DNA of 52,583 bases, the filler included, from Streblomastix strix (lineage: Eukaryota), in assembly GCA_008636045.1 (NCBI GenBank). It is 3 parts of 3 records of this genome, joined end to end, with 100 filler letters (N's around TTAATTAATTAA, not from the genome) between each part and the next. Parts side by side here need not be neighbours in the genome. Positions count along the whole stretch, not along the records: positions 1 to 17,467 come from SNRW01000703.1; positions 17,568 to 35,028 come from SNRW01000704.1; 1 more part is not named here. One strand, written 5' to 3'. Of the stretch, positions 12,193 through 37,550 are shown piece after piece. The notes under the pieces are model-generated. The model did no database searches and had not been told where the DNA came from. It saw nothing but the letters and a program-made list of their open reading frames with translations. Made by a program: the position numbers and the translations under genes. How positions within the stretch are numbered: the stretch's first letter is position 1; each line of letters begins with the position of its first letter.

Positions 12193-12813
12193 TTCACCTA
12201 TTAAAAATAAAAAAGTAAAATATTGACCTTAACGATCCTATAAACAAAAAAAATGTTAATTTGCAAATTATTGGATTTTTCAGCAGCTATATAGGTCAAA
12301 TAGATATTAATGTTGGTTATATTTGATTAAATGTTCATACTTGAATAAATAAATAAAAATTTGAAATGGTAAATTGAACATTACGTGCTAAATTTGATTT
12401 TGTTGATAATTGGATGTTTCGGCTGTATTATGAAAAATATAGCTGATGTATTTCGAATAAGAACACAATGAGAATATCAGAATATACAATAACAACCTTA
12501 GCAAACAGAGAATAACAAATATAAATTTTTGGGATATAAATGATTTCATAATAATTTCTGATGAAAGTTAATTCCAACTTATGTTTAACAAATAATAGAC
12601 CTAAATTATGCCAATTATATCTAAGGAAATATGAATAAAATTATTCAATTTTAAAACTGCTCATATGAGTGCACTAGGACTAAATTATACATAATTTACA
12701 TATAAATTGTTAATTCATTACTGTATATCACAAATTACAACAAAATTAAGCCATTAACAGCTAAGGAAATCCGACTTTAAATGAATTTTTAATTATTATT
12801 TTTTTGAATTTAG

Positions 12814-15800
12814 ATGCAATCAACAAATATTGAGAGTGAATCCCTGAAAATTGCTGAATAATATGATGAAATTGCAAGAGAGAAATTAAAAGTACCTCTA
12901 TTATTTCAATTGCTGAACGAATGTAGAAATGAAATTTTTGTATGTTAAAAAGAAAATGAAATATTAAAATTTAATGTTAAGGAATTAAAGAAAGAAAAGT
13001 TTGAATTAGCTGAGACTATTAACTAAAATGTACTTTTAATTGAAAATTATTGTAATATCATTTAAAATTCAGAAAATAATTATTAATAAGTAATGAATGA
13101 ATAAATTTAAGAAATCATATTAAAGTCTGAAGAATAGCAGAAGGAAAACAAAACAATATAAATTGGATTGATATAAGAAAAAGATTTGCATATTACTATA
13201 TCATAATAAGCGCTTGATTCATGTGAATCATTAACAAAATCTCTAAATGATTTAGAAAATTAAAATAAAGAATTGTAAATACAAAATGAAATTTTAAGGA
13301 GATAAAATGAAATGAAGGATTCAATTATAAAATAAGATTTAGAAAAGGTATATGAAGATAGAATTAATAATCTCGTTCAATAAAATGAAGAATTTAGAAA
13401 AAAGATTAATGAGTATGAATAGAATTTAATTTAATATAAGTTGAAGGCTAATCCAAATTCAACATTAGATCTATTCAATCGTTTAACAGCAAGTGAAGCA
13501 CAAACAATTCAGCTAATTCATGAAAAGTAAAAATTAGAAATAATGTTATAATCTACAATTGAATCTCTGAATAAAGCGGAAGAATAGCTTCGATTTCACG
13601 AAGATCAGCGTATATAGATGAATGAACTACAAAATAAATTCTCAGATAAAGAGATGGAACTTGCAGCAGCAAACAATGCCGAGAGAATTGCAAAGATTGA
13701 ATGTAATGAAGCAAAAGAATAATTCACTGCATTATTCAATGAAATTAATCAATTTGATGGATTTCCTAATAGAAATGATAATATAGAGGTATAGGAAAAT
13801 AAAAGAAATACAAATATTTAATCTTTTACTTATGATGATGAAGAACAAACGACAAATTAAGTCATTGAATAATAATAAAATCAGGAAAATGAATAATCTG
13901 GTATTTAAGATATAATAAGAAGAAAAAGAGGAAGTTAAGAAGCAGGTATTTCTATATAATTATAAAGAAAGAAAATAAGAAGAATTTAATCTAATTCGGA
14001 TGATGAAGATGAAGATATTAACACCGAAACACTTTATTAATAATAGAAAAATCAAATATCTGATTAAAATATGAAAAGTGATGACATCCCTTAATATCCA
14101 TTACATTCTACACATGAACTTTATTCTGCATATATTCATGTTCGTGCTCAACTTATATAATAATATGAAGCTAAACGTAATGATGATTCTACCAAAATAA
14201 TTAATACATATACGTAGCTTTTTGAAGAAAGAATGAAATTAGCTGTGAATGATTTATAGTATTAAGTTGAATAATGGAAATAAATTGCATAAGCAAGGAA
14301 AGATCTTCAATTGGAGAAAGTAACATCTTAATAAGATGTACCTGATTCTGTAGAAATAAATTTATAATCCAATTTAAATTAATCAGATTCAACAGATGAA
14401 CCAAATTAAGAATTAATCTTTTCAGCTCCATTATTAAACATTCCTTCAACTCACCATATAACATGTAATTCATTATTTCCTGATTAATTGAGTGATTAAT
14501 TGAATAATTCATCTAAGTCTTGTATTGATTAAGAGTAACTTAATTAAACTATATTATTGAATAATGCATAAATAAAAGAAGGAAATTATGAATTTAATAT
14601 TAATAGCCAATAAACTTTATCAGATAATAATCACAAAGAAGAAATTAGTTTTAAGACAACACAAAATGAGTTGGAATCATTAAAGATATTAGTCAATAAT
14701 TTGAAATTTGCTTTAAACTAAGCCAAAATTGATAGAAACTATAACTTACAATAAATAAGAGCTGCCAGAGAGATCAGTGCAAGATTAGAAGAATAATTGG
14801 ACTAAAGAAACAATTTACTTTCTGCAACACTAAATGATTTGTAAACTCAACGCAGAAAAGTTGAGATTTGTGAAACATAAGCTTCAGACTAGATTCGGAA
14901 GAGAGATGTATTATAAGAAGAGTTGTAAAGACTTCAATGAATAATCGACATCTTAATTAAAACAAAGAATAATAATGAGGAGTTAAATATAAATACTTAG
15001 AAGCCAGAATATGAAATGAAGTAAAAGAATTTAAGAGAAGGTGAAAATATAGAAAATGTATTATAATCTGCATTAGTGTATAAAGAGCTTGCTCGAACGG
15101 AAAAGAAACTTGCAAACACTCAAGATGAATTAATATAAGTGAAGAAGAAATTGGAAGAATCTGAAACGATTGTTGAACAGTTAAAATATGAATCAAATTT
15201 AGAGATTTAAAAACTGTAAAATGAACATGAAAGAAAGGATTAATCTAATGAATAATTAATTTAATAGATGAATGATAGTTTATAATAAAAAATTTATGAT
15301 CTACAACGAACCATATAATCATTAAATGAAGATAGAATTATTGCTGAATCAAAAACTTTGAAAGAAATTACAGATTTATAAAATAATTTCTAAGAAGAAA
15401 AAGATAAAATACATTCCAAGCATTAACAAGAATATGAATAATTAGTTACAAAATTTAATTCCGAACATTAATTACTTATCCATCAATAAGAATAAACTGA
15501 TATTTTTCAAATGAAGTTGAATTCTCAAAGAATAACAATTGATTAATAAATGGAAGAAATTGTTTAAAAGTAGAAAGAATCTAACTAAAGTTAAGAATAA
15601 GTTAAAATACTCCAAACTTAACTATCAACTGTTAATTAGAAATAATATTTGGAAAATCCTGAAGAAATGCACAACAAAAAAGAAGAATAAAATGCCATTA
15701 TTAAAATTGAAAAAGAAAATATTGAAAATGAAAATAATTTGAAATAAGAAATAAAACGCCTAAATACTGAAATTACTATTTTGAAAAATGAAATTAAATA

Positions 15801-16425
15801 ATTGCGAATATCTTCATCAAAACAAGAATCTGACCAAACTTCTATTCCACCACAAACTGCTGTTTCAATTCTTCGTGCATAGCTTTAATCTGCAGAAGCT
15901 AAATACTAATTGCTTACTTAAGAGAATAAATAATTAAAAGAAGAAGCAAAATAAAAGAAAGCTAAGAAATAACAAAAACATAAATAAGAATAAGAGATAT
16001 AAGACACATCAATTAAATCAAGTGTTAGAAATGGACCTACTCAAACACCTTCTACTCGAACATAATCTCCAATTTATTCATTTTCTGCTTATTCCAAACA
16101 TTAAATTGCAGTTAATCCAACATTTCTTTATTCCAATCTTATTAACACACCCAAACTACAATCAAACAGCAACTCTGTTCCTCTTTAAACTCCTTTTGTA
16201 GAATAATCTTCTCTCTCCTCTAATTTAGATTAATCTGTCATTCTTGAATCCAATCATTAATTGAGAAATGAAAAACAGACTCTTGAGAATTTATTGAAAT
16301 AATAGAAAAGTGAAAATATTTCTCTTATTGAAAATATCAGAGAATTAAAAGATAAGTTAAATAAGAGTTCAGATGGCAATTCAAATCCAGAGACAAGTGA
16401 AATAAAACTTTAAAATAAAAATTGA
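12814..16425 (+). CDS. Long coiled-coil protein (~1,200 aa) with one internal in-frame TGA at 14938-14940
   Basis: One frame from ATG12814 (MQSTNIESESLKIAEQYDEIAREKLKVPLLF) to TGA16423-16425, E/K/Q/L heptad-rich on both sides of the internal TGA. Confidence 0.8.
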
Positions 16426-16518
16426 GCTTTGAACGTCATGATCTATCATACTACTAAGAGGGAAAACAATTTGATTAATAAAATATTATTGAAATACAAA
16501 TATTTAAATGTTTATTTT

Positions 16519-17467
16519 TCATTTAAGTTCATTGAGCAAAAAATTTATACGACTTTAAAGGCCAGAAAGTGCTTTTGAATCATATTCAAGTATAACTAAG
16601 TTACTTTATATCCAATCTGAGCGTTTTTCATCAGTTGAGTCTTACTAACCAACTTCTCCATTACAGACCTCTTCTGATATAGATGCAACCAGCGAAGCCA
16701 AAATTTAAGAACGTTTTACGCCATTCTCAGCTAATTATTTAGAATAATGTAAAGTTTTAATTATCCCTAATTATTACTTCTTGACAATAATTTCTTGAAG
16801 ACTTTCACTAAGAGAAATAATCACGGTTTATATTTGCTGAGTTCTGTTTGCTTCTTCGTCTATTAAAATTATTTCCTTATCAAATGTTTTATTTGCTTCC
16901 TCTGGTGACATTCCATCGTCAATGAATATTTATTCTTAAATAAATTTGTCAAAATCTAGATTATTCTCAAGATATTATTTGAAGATTGATTCAATATCAA
17001 ATGATCCTTTTTATTCATTTAATTCACGGTTCGCTCTTAGAATGAAACCCTATATGCATTTAATGGAGTTATTAAGTTGTTATATTTCAGGGTCAACTTA
17101 AGATCCATAATTCACCTATAATGCATTATCTGCAATTTAATATAGGTCCAAAAGATTATTTTCCAATCTGTTGAAAGCAAAAGTTATCAAGATAAAAAAT
17201 GAAATGTGATTAAATATTATATACCGAGAAAACATTGACCTGTTGAAATAAAACATATAGATATAAATAAATAAATTGGGTTTAAAGAATTTAATATAGT
17301 TTTGAGAATTCAATCATTCTAGAGAAAAGAAATTAAATAATGATATGAGTAATTATTACAGATGTTTCTTTTGATATTAATACCAATTGAAACTAGTAAT
17401 TCAATGATAAATATATTAAGCAATGCAATTTTATAGGGTTGGTGTTTAAATTGTAAAAATGTTCATT
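16519..17467 (-). CDS. Hypothetical helical protein, 5' end truncated or uncertain at contig edge
   Basis: Main exon ~17167-16519 reads LENNLLDLYQIADNAL...RSDWIQSNLVILEYDSKALSGLQSRINFLLNELK-TGA; upstream exons are separated by T-rich GT-AG introns. Confidence 0.65.
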
Positions 17468-17567
17468 NNNNNNNNNNNNNNNNNNNNNNNNNNNNNNNNN
17501 NNNNNNNNNNNTTAATTAATTAANNNNNNNNNNNNNNNNNNNNNNNNNNNNNNNNNNNNNNNNNNNN
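17468..17567. other. Artificial contig spacer (100 nt of N with TTAATTAATTAA at 17512-17523)
   Basis: N run with a palindromic six-frame standard-code stop linker; identical design at 35029-35128. Confidence 0.97.
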
Positions 17568-18153
17568 ATGGCTATATCAGTAACTTAATTAATAAGAAAT
17601 TGCGTATAAAATTGTTAATTACAGATTTGATTTAAGTCCATTATCAGAATTCCCAGACAAATTAATATCTTCTTTCTTAATTAATTCATCGTTTGTTAAT
17701 TCATCTTATTCTTCATTATTTCTAACATCTTAATTTCTAATGATTTTTTTGTTCTGTAAATTTTCATCAGCAATATGAATTATTTCCGTTTCATTATTCA
17801 TTGGTGTATTATTAATATTACTAATTTATTATTAGTCATCATTTCCTTCTGAATCATATTCATATTCATATTCATATGAACTATCATTTTCTGTTTCAGT
17901 TTCGCTTTCATCAACAATATACTAATCTCTTTTATTGTATTTAATATCTCTATCAATATTCAAATCAACATGTTCAACTTCAATTAGTGGTTAATCTAAA
18001 TCTTAGATAATGCAGCCCCATCTGTTGTAATAATAGTTTAAGTAAGAAGAAGATATTAATTTGTCTGGGAATTCTGATAATGGACTTAAATCAAATCTGT
18101 AATTAACAATTTTATACGCAATTTCTTATTAATTAAGTTACTGATATAGCCAT
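17568..18153. repeat. Perfect 107-bp inverted duplication at contig start (17568-17674 vs 18047-18153), probable fold-back chimera
   Basis: 17568-17674 is the exact reverse complement of part of the Dicer PAZ-coding region; it abuts the contig end and truncates the gene. Confidence 0.85.
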
Positions 18154-21100
18154 TATGATGATTAAAACAATAATTAGGTATTAAATTATGATTATTATGA
18201 TGAATCAAAGAATGGAGATGATTATGATTATTATGAATCTGAAGGTGGAGGATAAAATATAATTGATTTTTATACCTCTTTCAAGTCTTCAGTATTTTAT
18301 TATTATTAATCTGTATCATTTTTCAATTATTTTCTTTTCTTACTTATTTATATTTAAAAATCTTTTATTCTTTTTAATGTTTATTTATCTTTTTATTATA
18401 ATGATTATTTGTAAAGTGGAAACACATATGTACCAATTGGAGGAAGATCATAATATTTATGTACTAATTGTTATTCTTAATTTTAATTTTACTTTAAATC
18501 TAATAAATTTATTATTTATTATTATTATTTACTTTATACCTTATTATGCAATTGAGAATGCATATAATTTAGAATTTATTAGTAGTTCTAATGATCGAAA
18601 TATTATGGGCAAAATAATTAATGAAGAAGAGGCCAATCAACAGCAATTAAATTATTTTATTATTATTGATATTAATTTATAATTTAATTGTTATTAATAT
18701 TATCCATATTATTATTATTCTATTATATGTTTAAACAATTGTCTTCCTCAATTTCTGGAGGAGGAAGGAAAATAATTGATGATTTGGAAGACTAAGAAGA
18801 TTAAGAAGATATAGAAGGTGTAATAGAATAAGAATTAATTGAGGATGAAGAAGATTATTACGATAATAAAGATGAAGAAGATGATTATTATGATAATAAA
18901 GATGAAGAATATTATTACGATAATAAAGATGAAGAAGATGATTATGACAATGAAGAAGAATTATGAGTATATGGTGATGATTGTAAAACAGATGAAATTG
19001 GAGAAGGAGATTAATTTATATATTATTAAGGAGATAACAATGCATTAGGAGAACTATTATCTAAATTATTACTATTATTATTTTAACTATTGTTCCCAAC
19101 ATTATTAGAATTATTATTAATATTACTTATGAATAAATCATCATCAGTATGAGTAGTTAAAATGGGAACTAATAAATAACACATTGAATCAGGAATTAAA
19201 GTATTAATGTTAAGGAATTAATTTCCATCGTTCATATCTTCTTTTCTTTCATAATTATTATAGTCTTCTTCCCTTCCAAAATTATTCCATTCAATGTTTT
19301 ATTCTTTCTATATTTCATAAAACACATCTTTATCAACATATTATTCACAGTTAGAATCAAACTGCTATAAAAATGAAGAATATATATGATTAATAATATA
19401 TTCACCTTTTACTGATTTATTTATTGACTCATTTTATTTTTCATTCTTGGCATCTATATTATTTTATAATTAATTTTATTATTATTTACTTGCACTATTA
19501 TAAATATATTTGGAAATAGAATTTTGATCAAATAACATCGAATGAAATAAAAGTAAAAATTAGAACTACTATCTATTTATATAAAACGGTATGTTAGCTT
19601 AATTCTGCTGATATTACAAACCTATTTGTTATTAAAATAATTATTATTGCAATTATAATTACTAAATTTAAGAAGAATATTAAAATAAAATATCAAATTA
19701 GGATTAGATTTTGTTATTGTTGTTATGATTAATATTATATTAAAATTATTATTATTCATTCTAATTATTTAGTGGTGTAACTTATTAAACGTAAACTTAA
19801 CATTGAAGAATGTATTTTATATTTTTATATTTATCATATATATGCTTAATTTTATCTTATCTATGTTTGATAGATCTTTAATTATATCTTTTATTATAAT
19901 TTTCTTTTCCTCCATCTTTTGTGTATTTATTGTTAATATGAATTTTTTCTCCCTGTTATTAATTATTAATTATTTAATTATTTCTTTATTCTTTCTTATT
20001 CTACTTCTCATTATTCAACTTTAATTAATTATTAACTTTCATATTTATTTTCATCTATATTTGTTTTTTCTCTTATTTCTTTTTTAATTTTTCTTCTTTT
20101 CTTTTCATTTTCTGTTTATAATAATGTTTAATTCTTAATCTGTTTAAACATTGAGTGAGTTTTTTATTCTTATTCCAATTAAAGTCATTTATATATTAAT
20201 AAGAAATTGATACATTAAATGGGATAATTTGTAGATGAAGAGGAAGAGGGGAATGAGTAATGATTGCAAAAGGATAAATAATATCTTATTCTTTTTCTTA
20301 TTTGTCTTATTATTGATCTCCTAATAACTATTACTCTAATTGTTATTATTCATTTAAACAATATTCATTTTCATCTTCTTCTTCTTATTATTAATCTATT
20401 TATTTATCACCATCATCAATATTATCTTCATCATCATTAATATATTCTTCTTCTTCCGTATCTTCATCTTATTCATCTTATTCAACTTCTAATCCATCAT
20501 CTTAATCATAGTAATGTTATTCTTTCCCTTTATGTCGATTCTTTGTATGTCTTCTTTCAGTTCTTTTTCCAACTAATAATGTTGACAGAATATTGAAATG
20601 TGATTATTATTGTTGTTATTGTTTCTATTATTCAGTCAATTATTTGTCTTCTTCTTTTTCTTCCTTATTGTCATTCAATAATATTAATGAAGATTACTAA
20701 ATATTATTACTATTCTCTTTTTCAATGTTTTTCTTGTTATTCATTAGCGTAATTTTATAAGGTTTAATAATGAATACTGATAAATATAAAGGAATAAGAT
20801 CGTTATTATAATACTATATGATTTAATCATATTCGTTTTATTAATTTCTCTTTATATTATCTTATTAACTTTTATTTAAATCTAAATTACTTTCCAATTC
20901 TTATTTTTATTCATTGTTCTTCTTAACAATAATTATTTATTCTTATTCAATATTTTATTATTTCTCCGTATTTTTTAACAATTCATTTTCTATTAACTCT
21001 TCTTACATTTATTTATTTACAGTTATTTTATTTTATGTTTATTCATCTTTAATTTATTAATATAAATCAATTTTCTATTTAAATAGCAAAGAAGGAAACC

Positions 21101-24100
21101 ATAATAATCTTCCTCTTCTTAATGATAAACACAATGGGACATGAGATTAAACAGGAACTGCTTCAACTTCATCATTTTCATACAATTGAATTAATTATTA
21201 TCTTTTCTATATTAATGTTTATATTGTTACTTGTTATTAATCAATAATCTGAATTTACTAATTTCCTAGATTTGTTTCTTTATTATCCTTCTCCTTATCA
21301 TTTTTATTGTTTTCTTCTTTATTTTTAATTTACTGTCTAAATTTATATTAATTATTATGCAATCTTCCGATTCCAAATATTAAATTAGAAAAAGAAATAT
21401 TTGGAAGAAACTAAAACAATTTGCGAGAAATTAGATTATTGTACCACTAATATTACTGTAAATCTGTACATTTACACTTATTTATTATTCCTATTTGTTA
21501 TTCTCCTTATTCAATTTAATGTAACTGTTGCTTTTATATTCCTTGTTATAATTATTCGTTTTTCTTTGGTATAAAAATCGATTCATATTAAATAAATTAA
21601 TTTTATTTATTTTATTTTTGTACAACTTCATTTTTCAAAGAAATATTATTTGAATGAATTTATTATATCATACTTCTTATTGTGATATCTGCATATTTAT
21701 ATACATATTAAATATCAATATTATTCTTTCCATTGATTTATTCTTTATTACCTTCATTCTTATTTTTCACCTTCATTATTTATTTTTGTACATCTTCATC
21801 TTCATCATTTAATATATTTCCAATATATTCACCACTATCATTCAGAAATGTTGGCTTTAATTCTTCATTTAATATTCCTTTTTCATAAAAATCCTTTATT
21901 ACGCTCATGCATACTTTACGTTATGCTTCTTTTTTTGATCAAAATTACAACGATTAATATTAAATTTATAATTATTGCTCTCCGAATTATTATTGTTAAT
22001 TGAATATATTAACGAAATGAACTGGAAGTAATAATTTAGCTGTATATAATGATTATAATGAAGATTAATATTGAGGTCGAGATAATCTTGATAATGATGA
22101 AGATAACAATGATGAAAATTATGAATTATATTTATATGATTTTGAGTATGAAATTATAGCAGTAATTACTTAATTATATTTGTGGGGAACAGATGAGCAT
22201 AATTTATTAACAAAATTTCGAGCGCTTGTTTCATCAATAAATGCACCTGTTGGAGTTCGAATTACTTTATCTTCATCAATGTCAAGATCATTATCCAAAT
22301 CTATTTCATCTTCATCATCTTCATCATCCTCATCATCTTCATTTTAATCTTCATTATCTTCTTTCTAAACATTTTAATTTTTCTCTTTTTCTTTCTCTAT
22401 TATTATTTCTCTATTTAATTTCTTAATGTTTTTATTATTAAACTTTCTAACATGATTTTATGCAAATCTCAATATTTCATCCTCGCAGAACCTATTCTTA
22501 TCTAATTACTTATTCATATAATTGTATTCATCTCCATCTTCACACAAATGCCCATAAATTGCTTATCTTCTTCTTGCTCTTCCTCTTGATTATAAATATT
22601 GAGGAAGATTTTCAAATGAATCAAATCTAACAACAATATTGCAAGGTTGGAAATCAAGGCCTTCTTCAGCAACATTTGTTGCAAAAAGAAGATTAGCTCT
22701 GTTTGTTCTGAACTCTCGAACTACTTTCTTTTATGCATTAATCAACATTGAAGGTCTTAAATACTATGAAAAATCTTATCCTTGCTAATTAAATTATGAA
22801 TTATTTTACTTATTTAACATATTTTATTATTATTATTACTATTACTATTACTATTATTATGAAAATGATGTTAATGTAGAAGATAAAGATGATGATTATA
22901 TTTATGTAGAAATATTATTATTAGTATTTATTTTCAATGTTTACTGCATTGTGTGACCGACCAATACTCTAAAAAGGGTTTTAAAGAGGAAGAAAAATTA
23001 TATAAACGGAAGTTATATATTGGAGATCAAATATTAAAAATGAAAAAATCAAACCTAGAATTAAACATTGTACGAAGAGGAAGACTTAATGTGAAAAGTT
23101 TATGAAGAAGAAATGCATCCATTCTTCTTTTACATAATACAAGAGCCTTAAATTCATTTCTAAATTGTTTGGTTAAATAAATAATAAAATAAAATATATG
23201 AAATTTAGAAAAGGCAAGGTTAGAAAAAAAAATAAAAAAAATTTGTTATTAATTACCCAAGTTAAAGTCTCTTTGCAACAAGAAAAGCAATAAAAGAACG
23301 AAGTTTATTTGAAAAGCTTTGAGTTTTAACAATTAATTAGGAAGGTAAAGAAGTAAAAGATGATGAAGATTAAATTAATTAAATATTTCTCTTCATAATT
23401 AATTTCTCCTTATTTTCTGCAATATTCTTCTTTTCAATTAACATTAGCATATCCTTCCTTGATAATGGCATCCTGAAGTGAAAAAGAAGCAATTTAAATA
23501 AACAAATTAATTCCAATTCTTTATCTTTTATCTTCTCAGAAACCCATTCATTCTACAAAAATTAACATCTGTCTAAAATAGCATATATAAGAAATTCACT
23601 TTATTCACCAATATCAACTTGGTACCCAGTTTATAAATTTGTTGGAAGTATGAAATTCTAATTAATTTTATCATCAAAGATGCATTTCAACACATCAAGA
23701 ACAATCTTATAACAAGGATTAATAATTTTACCACTTTTAATTTCTTCTATGCTATTATTCTCATTTCCAAATTCTAAATATATAGATTTTCCAAATAATT
23801 TCTACATCATTGAATATATTGGAAATTCATCAGCTAATCATTGCAATGATGGACCAAGATCCGACATTTATGTACAAACATATATTATTCCCCAAGGTCC
23901 ATATATATCTATCAATTGAAAGGGTGCCAAAATTTTTATAAAAAATATAGAACAGAAATTTAAATAAAAACAATTAAATTATTTAATTCTTATAATCTTT
24001 CCTATCATACTATAAATAGATTTAATGCTATTCAAAACAGATAGAACACGATTAAATTTCATCAATTTTTAATCACGAAAATCTAATAAATTTACAACAT

Positions 24101-25090
24101 CAATTAGAAGAGAATGAATTAATCTATATCTTTAAGCAAATTCTTCAACAGAATTTAAATCATCTGGTTAATAATTCTTTAAATTAAGATTGAAATTTAA
24201 ATTAGTAAAATGTGAGTATGCATTTTTAGAATTTCTAATGAGTTGTGCAATTTATTCATCTTTCTCCAATTTGTGTTACTTATTCTTATTCGCAAAAAAT
24301 TATTAATCTCTAAAAATAATAATTAATTCTTCAGGCTTTGGAGAATATATTCAAAGGAGTTTTACATTCTTAGTTGGAGTTATAAGTTACGAATCAAATA
24401 AATCTTCAATGAATTTTATCTGGTTTTTCTGCTTTCCTGCTTACATACATGGAGATGCAGTCAGACCAAGAATTCGAGGTTTGTTTGAGAATATCTATGT
24501 TTATACTCCACCATGATAGAAGGTCTTCATAATACGTGCATACTTATTGTAGAATATATGTAAAGTTAGTAATAAAATTAATAAATAATGACATTGAATT
24601 AAAGTAAAAACAATACTATATCATCCTTCTGGCAATGATGGCACTCATCAAAGACAATAAGAGATATGCTATCTAATGTTAAATATATATGACTGACTAC
24701 ATGAAGAAATACTTCACTTACAAATATCAATATATCTCTTTCTTCTATTTCAGTCTTCCAGTGTTGTGCATCCCACTCATTGATAGAATCATCTCCATAA
24801 TAAACTCCACTTTTGTATGGAAGAGTAGCACTAATGACTTCAAATTGTTAAAGTGCAATTAAAACCTGTGGAGCAAGAAAAACTACCTTTTTTCTAATCT
24901 TTTAGTCGGAATTTTCAATAATATGCTTAATTACATAAACAGCTACAAGAGTTTTACCTGATCCTGTCTATAAAAAACAAATTGAATTGTTCTTTGTAGC
25001 AATTTCCACCATTTCAGTCTGGTATGATCTCAGCGAAACATTTCTTTGTTTTGTTTTCTCAAACTCTGTAGCTTCTTTAATTGGTATCAT
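17675..25090 (-). CDS. DCR: Dicer-like protein: DExD/H helicase + DUF283 dimerisation domain + platform/PAZ; 3'-truncated (RNase III domains not in window); two in-frame TGA
   Basis: LRSYQTEM, FLQTGSGKT, LIVFDECHH, PRILGLTASP, YGPWG, ATNVAEEGLD, YLQSRGRAR; DUF283 TGAFIDETSARNFVNKLCSSVP...YTAKLLLP...SKKEAQRKVCMSVIKDFYEKGILNEELKP; YLLVP, VDW; PAZ YKIVNYRFDLSPLSEFPD...YLNYYYNRWGCIIQDLDQPLIEVEH. About four AT-rich introns between 22970 and 24620. Confidence 0.92.
18844..18946. repeat. Short tandem repeat (27-30 bp unit, ~3.5 copies) inside Dicer, encoding SSSLLSQQ repeats
   Basis: gatgaagaa(gat)gattattaygataataaa repeated on the + strand. Confidence 0.8.
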
Positions 25091-25468
25091 TTAAATAATG
25101 GTGTCTATAAATAGCAAATATAGAGAAAAAATATAAATCATAGAAATAACAATCTATTAAGAAGGAAAATGTAATTTAACAAAAAATATTTTAATTTTTC
25201 CGTCTCTAGCCTTGCATGGTTTTAAATAACCAAAAATTTATTAATATATATGTATGCCATTAAATATATTTGTTAAAGCCAAAAATAGTTATTGAAAGAT
25301 ATCCACGGCATTATATTCTTGCTTTTTTGTAGAAAAAAAAATTGACTTGTCATCAAAGCTCGCAATAATTTAAAAATATTTATTTTTGTAATAAAAATAT
25401 TTATTAATTGCTTTTAAAGGTTACTGATAGCTTTTCTAGAAAGCAATGAGGGAAAACAAAATTATTAC

Positions 25469-26023
25469 TCAAGTTTTTTTCAACAATGGATGCCGAGCAA
25501 AATATCGTTCGCGAGCCCTTGTTATTGCCTCATCATCATTTCTACGAATATTTACTCTTTCAGAAAATGCATTCTCTCTTTATAAACGTCTGTTCTCGCG
25601 TTCCTCCATGCTGAATTCTCCAAATACTTTAAGAGTTGGGTGTGAATCAGTTGGTTACTATTATTAAGTAATCTTCGCTTTTTTTTGAGTAATTTCATTA
25701 TGTTAATTGTTATTATCTTCATCCTCATCTTAATCATCAGTAGATGAAATTGTATTAAAAAATTTCACTGATTTCTTTAACTCTTCCACTTCTTATTCTT
25801 CTTTCTTAGCTTTCTCTATAAGATCCTCTTCTCTCAGCTTTTCTCTTATCTTTGCATCTCTTATCATATTATTCAAAAAGACTGGCTGATAATAATAATA
25901 ATAAATTATATTGATATGAGAATAAATTAATCTTACCTGGTCGCCTTTTATGGTGTTTATAGGAGCTTTTGGTTTTGCTCTCGTTTCTGATCTTCTATAC
26001 ACGCTGCCAGGAAATTAAATCAT
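25469..26023 (-). CDS. NSRP1: NSRP1/CCDC55-like nuclear speckle splicing regulator (start may lie further upstream)
   Basis: QPVFLNNMIRDAKIREKLREEDLIEKAKKEEQE resembles the DUF2040 helix; C-terminal RRNDEAITRARERYFARH resembles the conserved CCDC55 end. One GTAAG...CAG intron; ends TGA. Confidence 0.65.
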
Positions 26024-26681
26024 ATCTTAAGTTCCACTTTAATACTACAGTTGTATAGAATGCTATTTTTATTCTCAGATAGTTTATAAAAATATGAAAA
26101 AAAATAATAGTTCAGAGAGAAACAATAAAATAAGAGTAAATAAAAGAAAACTAAATTTTAATAGAGAATAACTCATTTATTTCTCATTGACTGATAAAAA
26201 ATAATATATTTTCAATTAAAATGCAATATATGTTAATTAAATATTAGAGATAATTAGTCAGTAATTGAGAGAAACGTGGGAAACTATTTTCTCTTCGAAA
26301 AATGTATGAATATTGAAATTACAATAAAAATTATATCTTTCAACATAAGTATTAGTTATTAATGTTATTATTTACTGATTAATAATCAGAGGTCGGAGAT
26401 ATTTAAAAAAAATTAATATCCCAGCAGCCGCTTAATGATTGTATTTATAAATATGTTAAGTGATGTACTATTATAACTTAAAACATATTTTTTTTAAATT
26501 CATGTTTATTGTAACTGAAACAATGAAAAAATATCTAAATAAGAAAATTATGAAAATTGAGCTTACTCCGATTAACCAAGTGAAATAATTTTATTATTTA
26601 AGAAAATTCATTTAAATAGCACGGAACTTGACTATTTAATATATTTTATTATTCATTATTTTCTTAATTCATTCAGAACTC

Positions 26682-28488
26682 ATGTAAATTGGATAAAGAT
26701 TTGCAAACTTGGAAGTTGTTTCATGCACCTCTGAAGAAAAATCTCATCCAGCTACAAATATCACACGAAAAGACGTTTGATCAAACATTTAAAAGCTTAA
26801 ATTTTATAAACTTTTACAATTATTAATGCAGAAATATTGGAAAACACTCAAATCTGTTAAAACTGCATCTGTTGAACTTATTTTATCCCCACCAAAAAGG
26901 ATTAAATCCATTAAGTTTCGCAATTTCGGTGCAACATCTATTTAAATAATGGCTTCTAAGAAAAATGAGAATTCAAACAATTATATAGTTATCCATTCTT
27001 TTTTTTATAGTCTTATTAGTATTTCTAATTTTTTTTATTTTATTTTCTGATTGTATCATTCTTAGCTCGTTCTTGATAAAACAATTCTAAATACATCGGC
27101 TGATGCAGAATAATTAATTAACGCTGATAAGCGATTTTGTTTTGAAAATGAGAGATTAGCTTCATTTATTTCACGAGTCCCAATTAAAAGAATAAAAGTG
27201 GTATTTTTATTTTATTATTATTATTTATTTAATAATTTCTATATAGACCGTAGAAAATCCAAATGTGGGATAAGAAAGCATTGGACTTTCTGAATTATAA
27301 CTTATTTAAATAGAAGAAGATGACATTGATGATATTTCCGAATAAATGCACAAAGTTCATTTTGAAATTCCTGAAGCTATAGATATATTTGCACCTAGAA
27401 TTGATCAACAGAAACTAATTTCAGGCATTGCACCAACAATGGTCTCAATGTCAAAACTGATTGACTAACTCAAAGTTGATGAACTTAAAAAGAAAAGATT
27501 GAAGGATGATGCGAGTTCAGGATCTTCGTCTGTGAATGTCTCTTCAAAAGCAAGATTTGGATAATTGGCAGCAAAAATGAAAGGTAAATAGAAAGAGAAA
27601 GATGGATCATCACAATCATAGACATCACAACCATCTCATTTATCATCACCATCTCCACCAAGATCAACTTCTCCTAATTAAGTTAAGGAACCTTATAATA
27701 ATAAGACTCTTACTCCAAATCCTAAATAATCCAACCCATTAATCATTACATCAACATATTCAGCTTCTGCAGATTCAAATGTTGGCAGAAAACCACCTCT
27801 TGCTCGATTACCACAAACAATAACAGCTTCGCCTTCTAAAACAAAATTGAATAAATCAGATACTGTTGATAAGGAAGATGAATAAGAAACACACAACCGT
27901 CCATAAATTTTAAAATCTTCTCCATTGAAAAGAAAAAGAGATTTAGAAGACCAGGAAGATTCAAAACAAAATAATAAGATTCAGAATATTAAATCAAAAG
28001 AAGCGGAAAATGACACAAAATCGGATGGAGTCAAAAGAAGGAGACTTGATGACAAAGAAGATGAAGATGATGAATAATAGAATAAAACTAATTAAGATAT
28101 ATTGGTATTATCATTTACTACTTTATTTTTCGATTAACAAATTACAATGTAATAATATTTTGTTATATAATAGGGTGGATTAACATTTGTTCTGAGTGGT
28201 TTCATTAATCCTGAGCGAGGTGATCTCGTTAATATGATTGTAAAGATGGGTGCCGCATATACCAATGATTTGTATGCCAAAATATCTTATTATTTGTTTA
28301 TTAATGCCACTTTTGTTTAATTGGTTAAACAAAGCTCTGAGAAAGTTACTCATGTTGTAGGGAGTTCTCCGCTAGGTCCGAAAGTGATACAGGGAAAGGC
28401 AGATGGATTAGTTGTAGTCAATGCAAAATGGCTTCGTGATTGCTACAAGCAGAAAAAGAGGCTTGATACGACCAGCTATAAAATATGA
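26682..28488 (+). CDS. XRCC1: XRCC1 DNA repair scaffold (N-terminal domain + BRCT1), five introns
   Basis: LEVVSCTSEEKSHPATNITRKD|KYWKT...IKSIKFRNFGATSIQI matches the XRCC1 NTD; ILGGLTFVLSGFINPERGDL...MGAAY...THVV...VVNAKWLRDCYKQKKRL matches BRCT1; ends TGA28486-28488. Confidence 0.9.
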
Positions 28489-28947
28489 ATAAATTAACGC
28501 TCTATTTATGCGTAAACTTTTAATCATATCAATTTCTTTAAATTTTTATGTAAAAATTTTTTAAACAGAATTAAATCAAAAATTTATCCAAACATGCTCT
28601 ATTAAGTGAGTTACACAAAACATTTATTTTTTCATCACGCAAAGATTTAATTTGGTAGTTAAACATATAAAATTATATAATATTTTGTATGATATAAAAA
28701 ATTCGCTTAATTATGCAAATTTTACGGTTACTAGTAAGACAATTCACTAAAAATTTAAAAAATACACAAAATGTGCTTTTTTTCAACATACTTACTTTAT
28801 TTAAATATTAAACAGAACCATTTTATAAAATTTATATATTATTAACTAAATAATTATGTTAATATTTCAGTTTATTTACTTAATAAATTATTTTCTTATT
28901 AATTTATTATTTTTTTTTATTTTAATCATTCTAGAAAACATTTTTTC

Positions 28948-30948
28948 ATGAATTAAATTAATAATATAGAAAATTCAACCTTTGATATTAATTATGCAAA
29001 TGTTATCAAGGATTAAATAGGAAATTGTACTTCTTAAAATCAATAAGATACCTTAGTTAAATTACTTGAGTTTACAGAGTATGGGGCTAAAAGAGTAAAT
29101 AGAAGTCAAAATAATTTATATATAAATATTCTTGAATAATCCGGCTTAATTAACAAGCTTAAGATATTAATAAATTCAGGTAATCTTAATAAATAGACAT
29201 TAATTCAATAAAAAACATCAAATAAAATACAATAATCAATAAAAACAAAGCACTTTGAAAATATTGAGCTGTATGTGTGTCTTGTTTTTTGCTACTCATA
29301 CAAATGCAAACGATTAGATAATAATATTTTTACCTAAATTATAGTGATTCTGAAGAAATATTTAGATGATGAAGAAGAATCATACAAATTATTTTCAAAA
29401 TCAAAATAGTGGGATAAATTTAGTAGAGAAGAAAATGATTAATAAATTTCTAGAATACTTTAAGCTTTTGAATGGCTTTCTTAAGATTTAATCAATCGTA
29501 ACTTTTTAATTGAATTTAACATACATAGATCTATTGTTATATTTGCCAGATTATAAATTCCTAATTCATCTTCACTAATAAATTTAAAATCAGAGAATAA
29601 TGATTAGTTAAAATTACCTTTATCATCAATATAAGTTGTTAGCAGTGCATTCGCAGCATTGGCTGAATTATCATATCAACATCCCTGTATTTAGAATGTT
29701 CTTATTGATGAATATATGCTTGATTCATATGTCCTTAATTAGCTTACTATTTGTGCATAACAATCTAAAATAAGCTCAAACTAATAGTATAATCAGGAAA
29801 GCTAATAGATTCCTAATAATAATATGAAGAATATGCAAAATAATGCGTGGATATCATATTTAGTTCATATTTAATTATTAGCAAGTTCATGTTAACTTCT
29901 CACTTCGCTTCTCTAAAACAATGAAAATACTCTCAAATTAATTCTTCCAACTCTATAAAATTCAAATTCTATTTCTTCATCTAAACTCACTACTTAAAAA
30001 CGCTTATCTATACAAAAATCTTAATCTTAATCAAATCTAATTTTATCTTAGAATGAACATATTCATTTGATATAGAATTGTCTTTGGAATTTTTTTCCTT
30101 GCTTATTATCTCATAAAAATCAACCTTTCCTATTTCAAGATTAGTAAATGAATGTTGATGATGATATTGATTGTACTAGGAACATTGAAGATGAATGAAG
30201 ATTAACTTCCATTTTACGATATAATTTAATTATGCTAATAACTGAAATACTCAAAATGTCTGATCGTAGTATGTTTAATATCTTCTTTAATCGTGAATCA
30301 ATGACAGTTAAATCGATCATTAAAAAGATTAACAAGCCATTTGCTGAATAAACATCTAATTTCTCTTTTATTAGTTGGAATTATGACAACTTCTGGAGAA
30401 TCAGAAGATAATCAAAAATTCAGGATGGAAATTAATTTCAATAAACTTTATCATCAATCTTAGTTCCAAATTGTTTATTATGTAAATAATATTTATTAGA
30501 AATTGCAGACAGTAATTATGAATCACACCATTCAATTTGCAACTAAGGAAGTTTATTATTTTTTAAGGATGAAAAAGAGACTGCGTGTTATTATTCATTT
30601 TCATTACTTCTCTAAACTATTATAAGAAGAATATGTTGTTTGGGAGGTGAAGAAGATAATGAATTTGTAATTGTTGAAGCTTTAGGATTAATAAAAAAGA
30701 TTTTTAATTTAAGAGAGATTTCTTTGAATTCTTTAATTGCTAAAGATGTTTTAAGCTAGATCGAAGAATTTGGTCTTTTGGAAGAATATGATGGGATGAA
30801 ATCAGAAATCAGCAATTAAATTAATAGAAATGCATACTATTAAAATGAAATTTCTCCTTTGAACATCATTTTTAGTATAAAAAAGTTAGCTTGTGAACTA
30901 TTGCAATTTCATGTTTATCAAACATATGTAGTTAAGCACCAAAATTGA
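28948..30948 (+). CDS. Hypothetical ARM-like helical protein (~666 aa) with one internal in-frame TGA at 30196-30198
   Basis: One frame from ATG28948 to TGA30946-30948; ARM-like segments (SSAFAALAELSYQHPCIQNVLI; ASSCQLLTSLLQNNENTLK); six TGG Trp codons plus one internal TGA. Confidence 0.75.
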
Positions 30949-31039
30949 ATAAAAAAATTAAATATTTAATGAATTTGTTTATATTAAGCCTTTTTATTAT
31001 AAGTAATTCATTTAAACATAATTTAAGTTATAGAGTCGT

Positions 31040-31386
31040 TCAGCGCCCAAGGGCATAATATTCTTAAAGTGGGAATTTAACAATATGAGCAATGTGAAAT
31101 GCATCAACAACAGGAATAAGACATACTAATTTCTGTTCCTTTCTGTGTAAGAAAATCTTCTATTCTTTTCCTTAAAAGCGAACAGCGCCAATCTGAAGAA
31201 GAGTATTTAAGGAAGTAAAGATGGAAAGTGAAATTGGGAGTGTAGAGTGCATAATATCATCCAATAGATCTTTTTTTGCTTCATCATCGTACGGTGATAG
31301 GATATTTTATTATTGTTACTTTTATATAGCATTATTATTGGACATATTTTTTTGAGGTATATATTGTGATGATGTTTTTGGCTGAG

Positions 31387-31475
<89 letters not shown>

Positions 31476-33143
31476 GGTTCGTGAATTACTTGAACCCACT
31501 TACCTTAAATTCCTTAACTTGCTTTAATTGGAGTTTTTTATTTTTTCTCTTTTGCTACTTTATTATTTTTCCCTTTCTTTATAATTTGTTCATCATTAAC
31601 CATATTATTTTCAATTGATGCTTTAATTCTTTTCCGCTCCGATATAATTATATTATGCTTTATTATAAATGCATTATCAAATGAAAGAATAAACTATTTA
31701 ATTTGATCTGGGATTATGTGACTCAAATTCATCATCATTCGACTGATATTAAATGTGGTTGCAGTATATGCTTTCTTTTCCTGGTCTGATGCAGATGCTT
31801 CTGTTTTGCCTAATTTCTTTCTTCTGTTGTAAACATTACTGAAAAGTTGATCATTCTTTTTAGCTGTTGTGTTTCCTGCGATGAAGCATGCCAATGCAAG
31901 ATAGAGTGTTGCCCAAGGAAGATGTTGGAAAATGGATTAAACTGTTATGAATTAATATCTTGGTAAAGTAACCTTCTAAATTATTGGGGAAGAATTGAGT
32001 TTATTTGGTGATTTTTAGATCGAGAGAGAATTTGTTGAATTTGGATTTTTGATTTGAGATTATATTTCATCTGGTGATAAATCTTGTGGAGAAAGTGCAT
32101 CATAGTTTAATAAATTATAGATTGGTTAAGTTTATTAAGTTTTTTATTTTTCTTTTTACTTCTATAATTTCTTAAGCATAGATATCTGCTAATAAATAGT
32201 TGGGTATTCACGTCTAATAGAAACATATTGACGTACAAGCTGAATATCTTCCGTATCATCTGTATCTTAATCTTTGTTCATGTTTATATTTGCTTTCACA
32301 CACTCAATTACAATTTTCTACTTCAGATGTGTTGATATTAATATCATCATTAAGGAATAAATTTAAAATTAAAAGAAATTAATATTTTACATTAATTGTA
32401 AAAAAAATAATATAAAAATAAGTGGCAAATCTCTTTTTATTTCTGGGAAAATCAAAGAAATCTAACGTCCAGGAAGTTAGAGATAATAAGTTGATAACAT
32501 AATAATTGATGTTTTTCTTGTAAACTTGATCAATTTTTTTAAAAAAAAATATAAAAATAAAAATAGTTCAAATATCGAAAGAAAACCTCCATAATATTAA
32601 ATAGTTCTTTCAATGTGAAAGTCTGTTCAACATTTAAATGTACATCACCTCTATTGCTAACTGTTACTATAATAATCTTTCTCCTGGACTGTTAACGAAT
32701 CTCATATTTTCGAATTAATGGAGCTATGCGAGCAAGAGCTGAAGGCTTTAATAAATGATTTTCTGAGAAAATTGGCGTTCCTTTCAGAGAATTAGTAATA
32801 AAATTGGACAGTGAAAAGAGAAAATAATAAATGTTTAACATACTGAATATAAAATTAAGAATATCTGTTAAAATTTCAAATGAATGACGAAAATCATTGA
32901 AATTGAGTGTTTGGAAATCAGAGTTCCAAGATTCACCTCTCTTTAATATGTAGTCTTGAATAAATTGAGGTTCAATTCCCCAGCAATGAATAAAACAAGC
33001 TGTTTACTGAACAAATATATTGAATTGAAAATCCTTAAAACTAACGAAGCAAAAAAAAGGCAAACACTCTCCAACTAACTTTCTATAAAATCCAGACGCT
33101 GCTAGATATCTTTTTCCAACTAATCCATAAAATTTCTCTGCAT
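31040..33143 (-). CDS. ORC5: Divergent origin recognition complex subunit 5-like protein, multi-exon
   Basis: HLPWATLYLALACFIAGNTTAKKNDQLF...TTFNISRMMMNLSHI and SIFTSLNTLLQIGAV...KLVCLIPVVDAFHIAHIVKFPLQEYY match the ORC5 C-terminal winged-helix pattern. The N-terminal AAA+ region is degenerate. ATG33143, TGA31040-31042. Confidence 0.7.
31388..31474 (-). repeat. (TAA)29 microsatellite encoding poly-Gln inside the ORC5-like gene
   Basis: 87 nt of tta on the + strand; in frame on the minus strand as CCA-(TAA)29-TCT-CAG. Confidence 0.9.
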
Positions 33144-33580
33144 AATTAAAATATAATTATTTAATTTATATTTAAAGAAAAAATTAAATTAGGGAGTGTG
33201 TGAAAAGCGTTTTTTTTCTAGTTTTTCATTTTGTATCTTTTTTGATATTGTCAACAATATTTATAATATGCAAATAAAAATCATTATAAAAATAATGAAT
33301 TATTAAACAGTTGCGCAATGAAAGACGAAGGAAATGCAAAATTAATATAATTTAGTTTTCTCACTCTAGTTACATCATTACAACTAATTTAAAGCAATTT
33401 TATTAATCAAAATATTATTATTATTTAAATAATAATATTTTATGTATACAAATATCAAGAAACCTCGCCAAATTTATTTTATTTAAATTTATGAAATTCT
33501 TGCTTTTCATTCAATAATTTTGTGATTTTATACTAATTTTTTATCTTTATTATTTTGTTATTCGAAAGAGCGATATATAG

Positions 33581-35028
33581 ATGACTGATTTAGATGCTAT
33601 GGAACTGTTGAGAATAAAAATAGAATAAATTGAAAACGAAATATAAAAAACGAAAGTTGAAAGTCTTAGAAAATAGATTGAAAATGAATATCTAATTTAA
33701 ACGATGAAAAATAAAATAGATAAAATTGATACAGAGAAATTCTCAAACACGTTAACATCTTCATATTCTTCAGTAAATACCAGCAACAAAAGTAGATCTT
33801 ATCACCACCATAGGAAAAAATATCCAAGAAGTAATAATACACTAAGATCATCATTAAATGATACACGTTCTCTATTATTGCAGTAGTAGAGGTGGGAAGA
33901 GGAAGATTGAGATAGAGCATTAACATTAAAGATTAAATAATTCAAATAATCTGAAAGAGAATTTGAGAGAAAATAAAATGAGAAAGAAAACATAAAAAAT
34001 TTCATTTTATTTAATTAAACAATAAATTCATTGAAATCTTCTTAATCACCTCATTCAGCAACATAAACGGAATTTAACTAATAGAAAAATGCAAATTTAT
34101 ATCAATAATTAGAAGATGAATTAAAAAGAAAATATTTTGAAGATTTAGATTAGAAAATAAAGTTATATAAAATTCACAGTATTTAAGTAGAAAAGTAGCT
34201 AAATAGCGAATATAGAAAATTATAGAAGAATTCTGAATAATTTAAAATTCCGTAGATATTTTTATAAATGGAACAATAATCGTTATTAATAATTCCAAAA
34301 CCAATTAGACCTCTATTAACCGAGTAATAATAGTAATAGTATACAAATGAGCAATTAATATATTAAGAATTAAAAGAAAATGATTAAGTTAATGAAAATA
34401 TTAACAAATCAACTAAATCACCTAATTTTTAATAATGATAACAGTAATTCAATTCTCAGAATGTATTACAATAATCACAACATTTAAATATAAAACCATT
34501 TATATCCGAGTCAATAGATCAGATTTAATAATATCAAAATGATGAAATTAAGAGGAAAGAAGAAATCGTTGAATAATAATTTGAGAAAAATAATCAATTA
34601 GAAAAGAATTAAATAAATGAAGGAGAAATAAATATGAAAGAGAGTAAGAGAGAAAGAATTGATAATTAAAATTAATTAAATTAGGAATAAGAATTCGAAT
34701 AATAGAAAAAGTTGGAAAATGAAGAAATTATTAAAGAAGAAAAAATTAAGAAAAAGAAAGAATAAAAACGAATGGAAAAGGAGAAGATTAGAAAAGAAGA
34801 AGAAGAAAGAATACTTAAATTAAAAATTGAAGAAGAAAACAAAAAATCGGAAGAAAAAATTAAATAGGAATAATTAAAGATTTAAGAAGAAATTAAAAGG
34901 AAAAATGAAAGAATAAAAAAAGAAAATATAAGTCGTTCTTTATCACCATCAAAATTAATTATATCGCAAAATCAATAAAAAGAAGAAATAAATGAAAAAG
35001 AAAGATAAAGAAAATCTGATGATGAAAG
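33581..35028 (+). CDS. Low-complexity coiled-coil protein, 3'-truncated, with internal in-frame TGA at 33908-33910
   Basis: MTDLDAMELLRIKIEQIENEIQK...LLLQQQRWEEED-TGA-DRALTLKIKQFKQSEREFERKQ...; the E/K/Q-rich frame continues to the contig end. Confidence 0.75.
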
Positions 35029-35128: not shown

Positions 35129-35182
35129 CTCATTTATCCACATCAGATTAACGCACACCATTGATGCAAAAATAAATCAAAC

Positions 35183-35614
35183 TCATTAATTATAACGATC
35201 AATTATATCACTAATTTAAAGTAAATCCTGTACGTTAGTTATGATAGTTTTCTAAAGACTTCGAATCTAAAGGAGTTATAAATCGTTGGCAGATGCTCGG
35301 AATTCCTATCGCTGTATACTATATTTTTATTATGCATGGGATCGTTACTCTGCGGCAATGCGTTTGACTTCTTCTTGTGAGCTATATTTTTTAGGTCTAC
35401 CTCTTTATTCTATTTTCTCCTCATTTAGTTATGTCAATTGAATAGGATTAATTGATTAATCGGTTAAAGGAGCATGAAGGACTTCATCAATTGGACTGGA
35501 TTATGTTTCAACAAATTATGGAACTGGTTTCTTCGATTATCTTTTACGCATTTGTTTTGCTTCACTGATTGGTTAGATTTGTAGGATTTGTTTTGTTTCA
35601 CCGATTGGAGGCAT
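35183..35614 (-). CDS. Viral small AT-hook DNA-binding protein (143 aa)
   Basis: MPPIGETKQILQIQPISEAKQ...EQRGRPKKYSSQEEVKRIAAEQR...IIDRYNQ-TGA; RGRPKK is an AT-hook. Confidence 0.7.
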
Positions 35615-35633
35615 TTCATTTTAAGAAAAATTC

Positions 35634-36965: not shown

Positions 36966-36991
36966 TTCATATTCAAAAATAATCATAGATT

Positions 36992-37141
36992 TCAATGGCA
37001 GATCTTAGATTCGCAAGCATATTTGATAGCGGCTTCCCAAATAGCTTTCCAGATAGACTTCCAATCAATATTCAATGATTCAAGCGCATCAATGGCTAAG
37101 GTTATATTTGCAGATAATGGTTCAAAGATAGGCATTTTCAT
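36992..37141 (-). CDS. Viral 49-aa Trp-rich amphipathic peptide
   Basis: MKMPIFEPLSANITLAIDALESLNIDWKSIWKAIWEAAIKYACESKICH-TGA; fills the gap between neighbouring genes. Confidence 0.55.
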   Translation of the reverse strand: MKMPIFEPLSANITLAIDALESLNIDWKSIWKAIWEAAIKYACESKICH

Positions 37142-37160
37142 TAGTATAAAAATAAATCAA

Positions 37161-37550
37161 TCACTCTAATGTTTTAATGAACTCTTCTAATTAATATATA
37201 TAATTATCTCGTATTTCTCTATATTCTTCGCAAGCATTATGAAGCATATTTTCGACGCTACTTTCTGAATTCATCCAATGAATCTCATCTTATATTCTTT
37301 CCTAAAGTGATATTCGCATCTCAAACGCTGTATCGCTATTTACCTCATCGAAACAAACTGTCTTCTTTTTATCTCTATAAAGTTATACACCTGCAATTTT
37401 TGCATCTAATTTTCTATCACATCTATCTAATCCATCAAGTACCCTTTATAAATCCTACGATAACTTACATAATGCACTTGTTTTTTGCATCGATTGAATA
37501 CGTTATTCAAGTCAAGTAACGGTTTCGTTTCGTTTCTCTTCGTTTCTCAT
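37161..37550 (-). pseudogene. Viral hypothetical protein with a frameshift (~37445) and an in-frame TGA (37512-37514)
   Basis: MRNEEKRNETVT*LEQRIQSMQK.../GQLDGLDRCDRKLDAKIAG...EIHWMNSE...LEEFIKTLE-TGA. Confidence 0.55.

Follow-up and report, generated by a model that had tools for sequence, protein, structure and literature searches.

In-frame TGA codons inside intact host genes of Streblomastix strix, an oxymonad of the termite gut, are likely read as a polar residue, most likely Arg, and TGA likely terminates translation only near the transcript end. We give this reading, which is drawn from DNA, a probability of about 0.6. The window, that is, the whole stretch of 52,583 nucleotides that was analyzed (assembly GCA_008636045.1), consists of three spacer-joined contigs (positions 1-17467, 17568-35028, and 35129-52583); contig 1 starts with an 84-nt perfect inverted duplication that resembles an amplification chimera. 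The host genes of the window contain 7 in-frame TGA among 8,861 codons (0.08%), together with 37 TGG, 28 CGA, and 630 TAA codons in the same set. The TGAs fall in 4 of the 10 host genes, all without a frameshift. Each of the 13 TGAs cited in a preliminary description was found at its given position and in its given frame, yet its list of internal host sites was incomplete, missing 24351-24353 in Dicer and 34436-34438. Another candidate, near 11430, is out of frame and was rejected. The internal sites are as follows:

14938..14940, plus strand: coiled-coil gene at 12814-16425; 494 further open codons
24351..24353, minus strand (new): helicase exon of Dicer; the Blattamonas ortholog has Arg, within a gap-free stretch
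23838..23840, minus strand: Dicer Hel2i region, after GPSLQ; the ortholog has GPSVQ and then Glu
21939..21941, minus strand: Dicer DUF283 domain, directly before the conserved SKKEA helix; 1,453 further open codons
30196..30198, plus strand: helical-repeat-like gene at 28948-30948; 249 further open codons
33908..33910, plus strand: charged coiled-coil gene, from 33581 to the contig end; common to read run X2
34436..34438, plus strand (new): charged coiled-coil gene from 33581; within a TAA/Gln run

In the four TGA-bearing stretches, TGA makes up 0.06 to 0.41% of codons in the coding frame versus 0.6 to 7.4% in the other five frames; therefore, these open frames do not reflect chance. TAA and TAG encode Gln, as previously described: TAA is opposite Q at 30 of 102 positions and TAG at 11 of 31, Q being the most frequent residue, and this trait, common to NCBI tables 6 and 27, is present in the host genes. 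The base after TGA likewise shows no obvious difference between internal and terminal codons, in line with the earlier observation. The codons following the seven internal TGAs are ATA, ATA, TTA, TCA, AGA, GAT, and TAA, none of which begins with C. No tRNA genes were found within the window, and searches of viral contigs, JGI metagenomes, and GTDB genomes returned no related loci.

Homolog comparison of internal TGA covers the three Dicer sites, with 14938, 30196, 33908, and 34436 outside it. The gene and its introns are located as follows:

17568..25090, minus strand: Dicer-like gene with Pfam DEAD, Helicase_C, and DUF283; truncated by the contig end, start uncertain
24616-24543, 24010-23909, and 23256-23160, minus strand: Dicer introns marked on the sequence

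The closest match is Blattamonas Dicer (34% identical), and homology to this ortholog is found both upstream and downstream of the three in-frame TGAs. The Dicer motifs are intact and there is no frameshift; changes at conserved columns (5 of 24 and 1 of 22) are conservative only, with 3 and 2 in Blattamonas. At the DNA level, in-frame UGA inside a conserved gene, a trait of table 27, is present three times. Single-sequence structure prediction for the Dicer exon reached a pLDDT of 47.9 and could not be used.

Opposite these TGAs, Blattamonas has Arg (24351), Glu (23838, where the alignment is uncertain past the Glu), and Lys (21939, where the residue depends on the aligner, being K with MAFFT and a gap with BLAST). 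The column at 24351 contains E15 A11 N9 L8 R6 Q6 K5 S5 among 79 homologs, and that at 21939 contains R30 K14 S9 P7 Q5 among 85, with no W in either; at 23838, the family alignment has gaps only (37/37). These residues contradict the Trp-like meaning put forward in the preliminary description. Trp faces TGA at 0 of 3 host sites, versus 8 of 9 positions for TGG (Fisher P = 0.018). Over the three alignable sites, the likelihood of Arg exceeds that of Trp about 125-fold and that of a neutral nonsense mixture 15-fold, while Arg and Gln are tied on the ortholog residues (ratio of 1.16); these likelihoods refer to one window, three alignable sites, and a single 34%-identical ortholog. A sequence-context classifier, which separates R weakly from Q, favours Gln owing to 34436 and scores W and C lowest. 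By our mutation supply estimate, TAA is a source about three to four times as large as CGA. Given read-through, we would divide the odds among Arg (about 45%), Gln (35%), a mixture (12%), and Trp (8%). Selenocysteine recoding is at odds with the absence of Cys from two Dicer columns (0/85 and 0/79), as is programmed read-through, with its UGA-C context and one leaky site per gene, with the absence of any internal TGA before C.

If table 6 were correct, the TGAs would be nonsense alleles: fixed or single-cell loss-of-function variants, decayed genes, or amplification damage. We regard this as unlikely, although viral copies do gain TGA by decay. In these copies, GC>AT changes reach 1.3 to 1.7%, versus 0.1 to 0.4% for the reverse, and 23 of the 97 non-partial ones end within the conserved region. 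The 84-nt inverted duplication that opens contig 1 could also be taken as a sign of amplification damage. The viral TGAs within the window are the following:

38115..38117, minus strand: TGA in a Polinton-like pPolB that has decayed; 40 of 54 homologs have W
39180..39182, minus strand: second pPolB TGA, left out of the preliminary description; C20 Y19 F11 and W0 among 75 homologs

Over its 1,461 codons, the decayed pPolB carries two TGAs but lacks frameshifts; thus, the absence of frameshifts alone is weak evidence. Site 38115 had been offered as evidence for Trp, but neutral G>A decay explains it, and the second TGA is at a Cys/Tyr column. Across 557 cells, W>stop occurs 6 times and W>Gln through TAG 8 times, so the former is not the more frequent change, as neutral decay predicts. 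Viral TGA was rejected as evidence on the code because the pPolB copy is decayed and the stops of sister copies fall at a mixture of columns (W/G/C/R 6/5/5/3).

For the host, however, nonsense alleles would require 4 of 10 genes to be dead, with Dicer hit three times, yet its motifs are intact. Where Blattamonas has Arg, the window Dicer never shows TGT, TGC, or TGG, so this gene shows no general CpG decay. Other reads also argue against nonsense alleles. In run X1, which is possibly the source sample and hence not independent, contigs bridge 23838 and 24351 (record 3), 30196 (record 8), and 34436 (record 7), all with unchanged codons; 33908 is at a contig end, and 14938 and 21939 are outside the pieces listed. 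X1 has 47 variant places across 10.5 kb, so no second allele diverged by several percent is seen. Run X2, from another study and about 4% diverged, retains TGA at 33908: its record 14, a contig with a depth of 2, covers 33826-33976 with six other letters, none listed at this codon. Downstream of 33908 and ahead of the first in-frame ATG (codon 120), the listed X2 differences are at third codon positions in 6/6 cases (P = 0.0014), consistent with a frame that continues past the TGA, although this support comes from one depth-2 contig at one site, and 3/6 change the residue. X2 record 11 covers 24351 with four differences, whose positions are not given. Runs X3 and X4 yielded no long pieces over the stretch.

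Correction of the mRNA is a considerably weaker explanation. U-to-C editing to CGA would give Arg, as seen at 24351 and as the modal residue at 21939. We know of no nuclear U-to-C editing. A-to-I editing of the stop codon, suggested in the preliminary description, would yield Trp and falls with the Trp reading, which the Dicer columns reject. Against editing in general, S. strix cDNAs retain TAA and TAG unedited in the available part of the earlier report (PMC1501061).

UGA as Trp or stop, the table 27 code proposed in the preliminary description, appears very improbable. Such a code has precedent in karyorelicts and Condylostoma, according to the available portions of the sources (PMC4967479; 10.1101/2022.04.12.488043); pPolB 38115 is at a W column, and 14938, 30196, and 33908 are outside the homolog comparison. 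However, neither the alignable host sites, of which 0/3 are at Trp, nor the likelihoods, the context scores, or the viral W>stop counts agree with it. The dual role asserted earlier, in which TGA appears terminal as well as internal-sense in host genes, is supported, whereas its Trp meaning is not.

Removal of the TGAs by short in-frame introns is the least probable account. GT-AG options exist at six scored sites (12 to 44 per site), 5 of the 8 marked introns have a length divisible by three, and 23838 adjoins a real intron, with options scoring near zero. Yet the best options at 14938, 21939, 30196, 33908, and 34436 have T fractions of 0.26 to 0.39, mostly with A>T, versus 0.44 to 0.63 with T>A in the marked introns (n = 8), a partly circular comparison since that set was chosen in part by T-richness. 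Real introns score -0.04 to +0.23, whereas the best in-frame option at 14938 scores -0.10. At 24351 no gap interrupts the ortholog alignment over the codon, and every option at 23838, and at 21939 as had been claimed, removes ortholog-homologous residues. Five sites thus offer only poor candidates for an intron by sequence, and at the other two homology argues against one.

TGA is the terminal codon at all eight mapped host ends; those cited previously were confirmed, and the NCBI capsid gene model also matches exactly. Two convergent pairs are closely spaced:

16423..16521, both strands: convergent terminal TGA pair, 93 bases apart
30946..31042, both strands: convergent terminal TGA pair of the helical gene and an ORC5-like gene, 91 bases apart

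The gaps between convergent stops are 91, 93, and 236 bases (few sites), and the first two suggest short 3' ends. Every internal TGA is separated from a gene or contig end by 592 bases or more, though the sites are few (seven).

A polar, most likely Arg, reading of internal TGA is favoured by the non-Trp host columns, the intact Dicer motifs, and the site common to a diverged sample. More tentatively, S. strix may have a nuclear code without a dedicated stop, in which all three stops would be read like the codons that carry C at the first position instead: UAA/UAG like CAA/CAG (Gln) and UGA like CGA (Arg) or as a stop. This would be an ambiguous code in Metamonada, with a UGA meaning other than Trp, Cys, or Sec. 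Under the polar reading, eRF1, already blind to UAA/UAG, would have little affinity for a UGA at a distance from the poly(A) tail, and a near-cognate tRNA would win, probably tRNA-Arg(UCG), pairing by G-U wobble at the first position, or else a mutated tRNA-Arg(UCA). A close alternative decoder would be tRNA-Gln(UUA) through second-position wobble; our literature search on UGA reading by Tetrahymena tRNA-Gln found nothing relevant. Decoding of UGA is probably costly, which may keep TGA rare and leave it missing in those conserved genes here that are richer in GC; the assignment of table 6, made from tubulins and ESTs, would be accounted for in this way.

Few lineages are known to have ambiguous stop/sense codes, and those covered here read UGA as Trp. 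A code with UGA as a non-Trp residue inside genes and as a stop at their ends was not found in the literature searched; the S. strix genome paper, outside this search, may bear on novelty. If correct, the oxymonad case would be an independent origin of ambiguous UGA, and a meaning other than Trp would show that termination becomes position-dependent before the residue is set, the latter by whichever near-cognate tRNA prevails. The ambiguous-intermediate model would become testable with existing DNA and the 2026 single-cell RNA data. Table 6 gene models of S. strix would be truncated or contain false introns, as exemplified for pPolB by P0197, which stops at 39180, and P0127, which has a gap across 38115; such faults would bear on claims of gene absence.

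The karyorelict code (table 27; Parduczia, Loxodes, and kin) shares UAA/UAG = Gln, internal and terminal UGA, low UGA use, and, probably, short 3' ends. Internal UGA frequencies, in the part of PMC4967479 available, are 0.042% in Condylostoma and 0.120% in Parduczia, a range that includes the 0.08% found here. Known ambiguous codes with UAR = Gln, as described in that source, assign UGA to Trp, whereas internal UGA here aligns with Arg, Glu, and Lys and never with Trp. Karyorelicts belong to a different supergroup, which implies an independent origin here. Condylostoma (table 28), Amoebophrya sp. ex Karlodinium, and Blastocrithidia (table 31), as far as the sources available describe them, can likewise use all 64 codons as sense and have context-dependent termination, but they read UGA as Trp, and two of them, Condylostoma and Blastocrithidia, have UAA or UAG as further stops, whereas every mapped end here is TGA. 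Table 6, assigned to S. strix and a Cryptocercus oxymonad, shares UAR = Gln and TGA gene ends (PMC13002328 and PMC1501061, available parts); the 2026 assignment was based on tubulins, and the accessible main text contains neither TGA nor UGA (PMC13002328). It permits no internal TGA, unlike the seven in host genes here, whose function is inferred. Near-cognate read-through also inserts Arg, along with Trp and Cys in yeast (PMC4150775) and with Trp in human MDH1x (PMC5133446), according to the sections available; it is a context-driven, few-percent process, whereas three Dicer sites would need high efficiency and none is UGA-C. Finally, Euplotes (PMC10235951, available part) terminates only near 3' ends, as is proposed here, its sites having spread by drift under weak selection, but its internal stops cause frameshifts, while here the frame is kept.

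The best matches of the dynamin encoded in the window (three contigs of ~17.46 kb each, with spacers between them) come from Blattamonas and Monocercomonoides. The closest homologs of pPolB, a viral Polinton-like DNA polymerase, are Streblomastix strix entries at NCBI (P0127 at 96%), and the capsid protein, translated under table 6 (UAA/UAG as Gln, UGA as stop), has an exact copy in the protein collection. These matches indicate that the source is an oxymonad with TAA and TAG as Gln, a reassignment already published (PMC13002328, PMC1501061, PMC10120064). Four features matter below.

4409–12300, minus strand: very long multi-exon gene of >2,300 codons, with no internal TGA
17568–25090, minus strand: Dicer-like gene
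26632–28488, plus strand: BRCT gene, whose BRCT domain is C-terminal and whose terminal codon is TGA 28486
35129–52583: decayed Polinton-like element, with rve integrase, pPolB, packaging-ATPase-like, KilA-N, capsid, and repeat-rich fibre-like genes

The 4409–12300 gene had no Pfam or PDB match, and a suspected resemblance to condensin Cnd1 was not borne out; the BRCT gene is presumably XRCC1-like. The ORC5-like gene (minus strand) contains a perfect run of ~30 TAA codons (poly-Gln) at 31387–31475, and a perfect 84-nt inverted duplication at the contig start (1–84 and 472–555) is possibly an amplification chimera.

Every in-frame TGA cited in the preliminary description was found in place, and there are two further host sites, 34436 and 24351, the latter the third in Dicer. 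Internal TGA thus totals 7 in 8,861 host codons, spread over 4 of 10 genes, alongside 37 TGG, 28 CGA, and 630 TAA; dynamin (38% GC) has none. Base composition alone predicts ~100 (computed on 8,726 codons). The count is far under mutational equilibrium, so internal TGA is likely mildly deleterious.

The host genes were checked for signs of decay. Against its homologs, Dicer is altered at 5/24 and 1/22 conserved columns, always conservatively, much as Blattamonas Dicer is at 3 and 2. None of the Blattamonas Arg positions is TGT, TGC, or TGG in the window Dicer. In X1, a sequencing run that is possibly the source sample, 47 variant places in 10.5 kb were seen, noise from 80% matching included; a strongly diverged intact allele is therefore not visible there. 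In X2, a run from another study, a 151-base contig covers 33908 at least 66 bases inside either end, with 6 differences, none at the codon among the 3 listed. Downstream of this TGA but upstream of the first ATG in frame, all 6 listed differences (3 silent, 3 not) are at third codon positions if the frame is read through, at a depth of 2 to 3.5. Site 24351 is likewise covered by an X2 contig, which differs from the window at 4 places in all, some of them possibly within the codon. Among Dicer differences listed in X1 and X2 and classified base by base, 14/23 are silent. X2 also carries Dicer pieces (window 22200–22680 and 24696–24898) of a more distant relative; these too use TAA for Gln, and the run may therefore hold a second table-6 oxymonad.

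Removal by splicing, which the preliminary description had allowed for, appears unlikely. The 8 marked introns have GTA donors and a T content of 0.44–0.63, and the best options at five TGA sites are purine-rich and score under 7 or all 8 of them. Options at 23838 score near zero but would remove a conserved helix, and an intron over 24351 is ruled out by a gap-free ortholog alignment. Two homology-anchored introns, 24543–24616 (minus) and 28272–28334 (plus), have an apparent AAG rather than YAG 3' end. As for assembly error, X1 contigs bridge four TGA sites unchanged, which counts against this explanation only, since X1 may be the source sample.

We aligned Dicer to 85 homologs. The column at 21939 reads R30 K14 S9 P7 Q5, with no Trp. 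At 24351, KNVKLL*IYSPKPEE aligns with KYSRLLRLYAPKPEE of the Blattamonas ortholog, and the TGA faces Arg. Across the family this column varies, and Trp occurs in 0/79 (6 of the 85 homologs, lacking the anchor, left out). At 23838, Glu follows GPSVQ in the ortholog, and the alignment stops there. TGG codons lie opposite Trp in 8/9 cases and Tyr in 1/9. Likelihood ratios from Dicer-ortholog pairs were 125 for Arg/Trp, 705 for Arg/Cys, 14 for Arg/Gly, and 1.2 for Arg/Gln. Sequence-context scores over all 7 sites place Trp and Cys worst and Gln best, driven mostly by the Gln-run site. Judged by these alignments and scores, the Trp-like meaning first proposed is not supported, and we reject it. We lean toward Arg over Gln on three grounds: Arg stands opposite the best-aligned site, it is the modal residue of the DUF283 column, and it is, with Trp and Cys, among the residues that UGA read-through inserts in published work (PMC4150775, PMC5133446).

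The viral polymerase had also been offered in support of Trp. One of its TGA columns is indeed Trp (40/54); the other is Cys/Tyr/Phe (W 0/75). The window copy is altered at 12/128 conserved columns, several changes being radical. The S. strix pPolB models retrieved number at least 158, and 23/97 non-partial copies end within the conserved region, at columns W6, G5, C4, and R3, with F, L, S, V, and Y once each (the F end is at the C/Y/F site of the window copy itself, and ends hidden by predicted introns are left out). Trp is replaced by Gln via TAG 8 times in 557 cells, about as often as by a stop. These counts amount to neutral decay; the viral site is of another kind than the host ones. Elsewhere in the element, an (AT)10 run (50231–50250) marks an apparent slip of the fibre-like frame. 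Two short JGI proteins, P0327 and P0358, fall in one 90% cluster with pPolB of S. strix, which places this lineage in some JGI data set; scans of JGI contigs for it found none.

Overall, we put position-dependent sense UGA at a probability of roughly 0.65–0.7; that form of it in which the residue is other than Trp is reasonably probable. Convergent terminal stops lie 91 and 93 bases apart, which fits short 3' ends. T-starting Gln codons make up 11/18 in the last 30 codons versus 358/471 elsewhere, the numbers being small. In a search of mainly open-access literature, to which the species' genome paper did not belong (PMC10703272, PMC10089648, PMC5304391, and PMC10235951 among it), internal UGA was not reported for any oxymonad, and "UGA as arginine" brought no match. 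The codes of karyorelicts, Condylostoma, and Blastocrithidia are NCBI tables 27, 28, and 31. For Condylostoma and karyorelicts it has been proposed that a stop codon is translated by default, with termination imposed on it only close to the poly(A) tail (PMC4967479; 10.1101/2022.04.12.488043). UGA here would likewise be translated by default and acquire its stop function near the poly(A) tail. The ambiguous ciliate codes would thus share their manner of working with this one, but table 27, in which UGA is Trp or stop, would differ from it in the residue, which here appears to be non-Trp.
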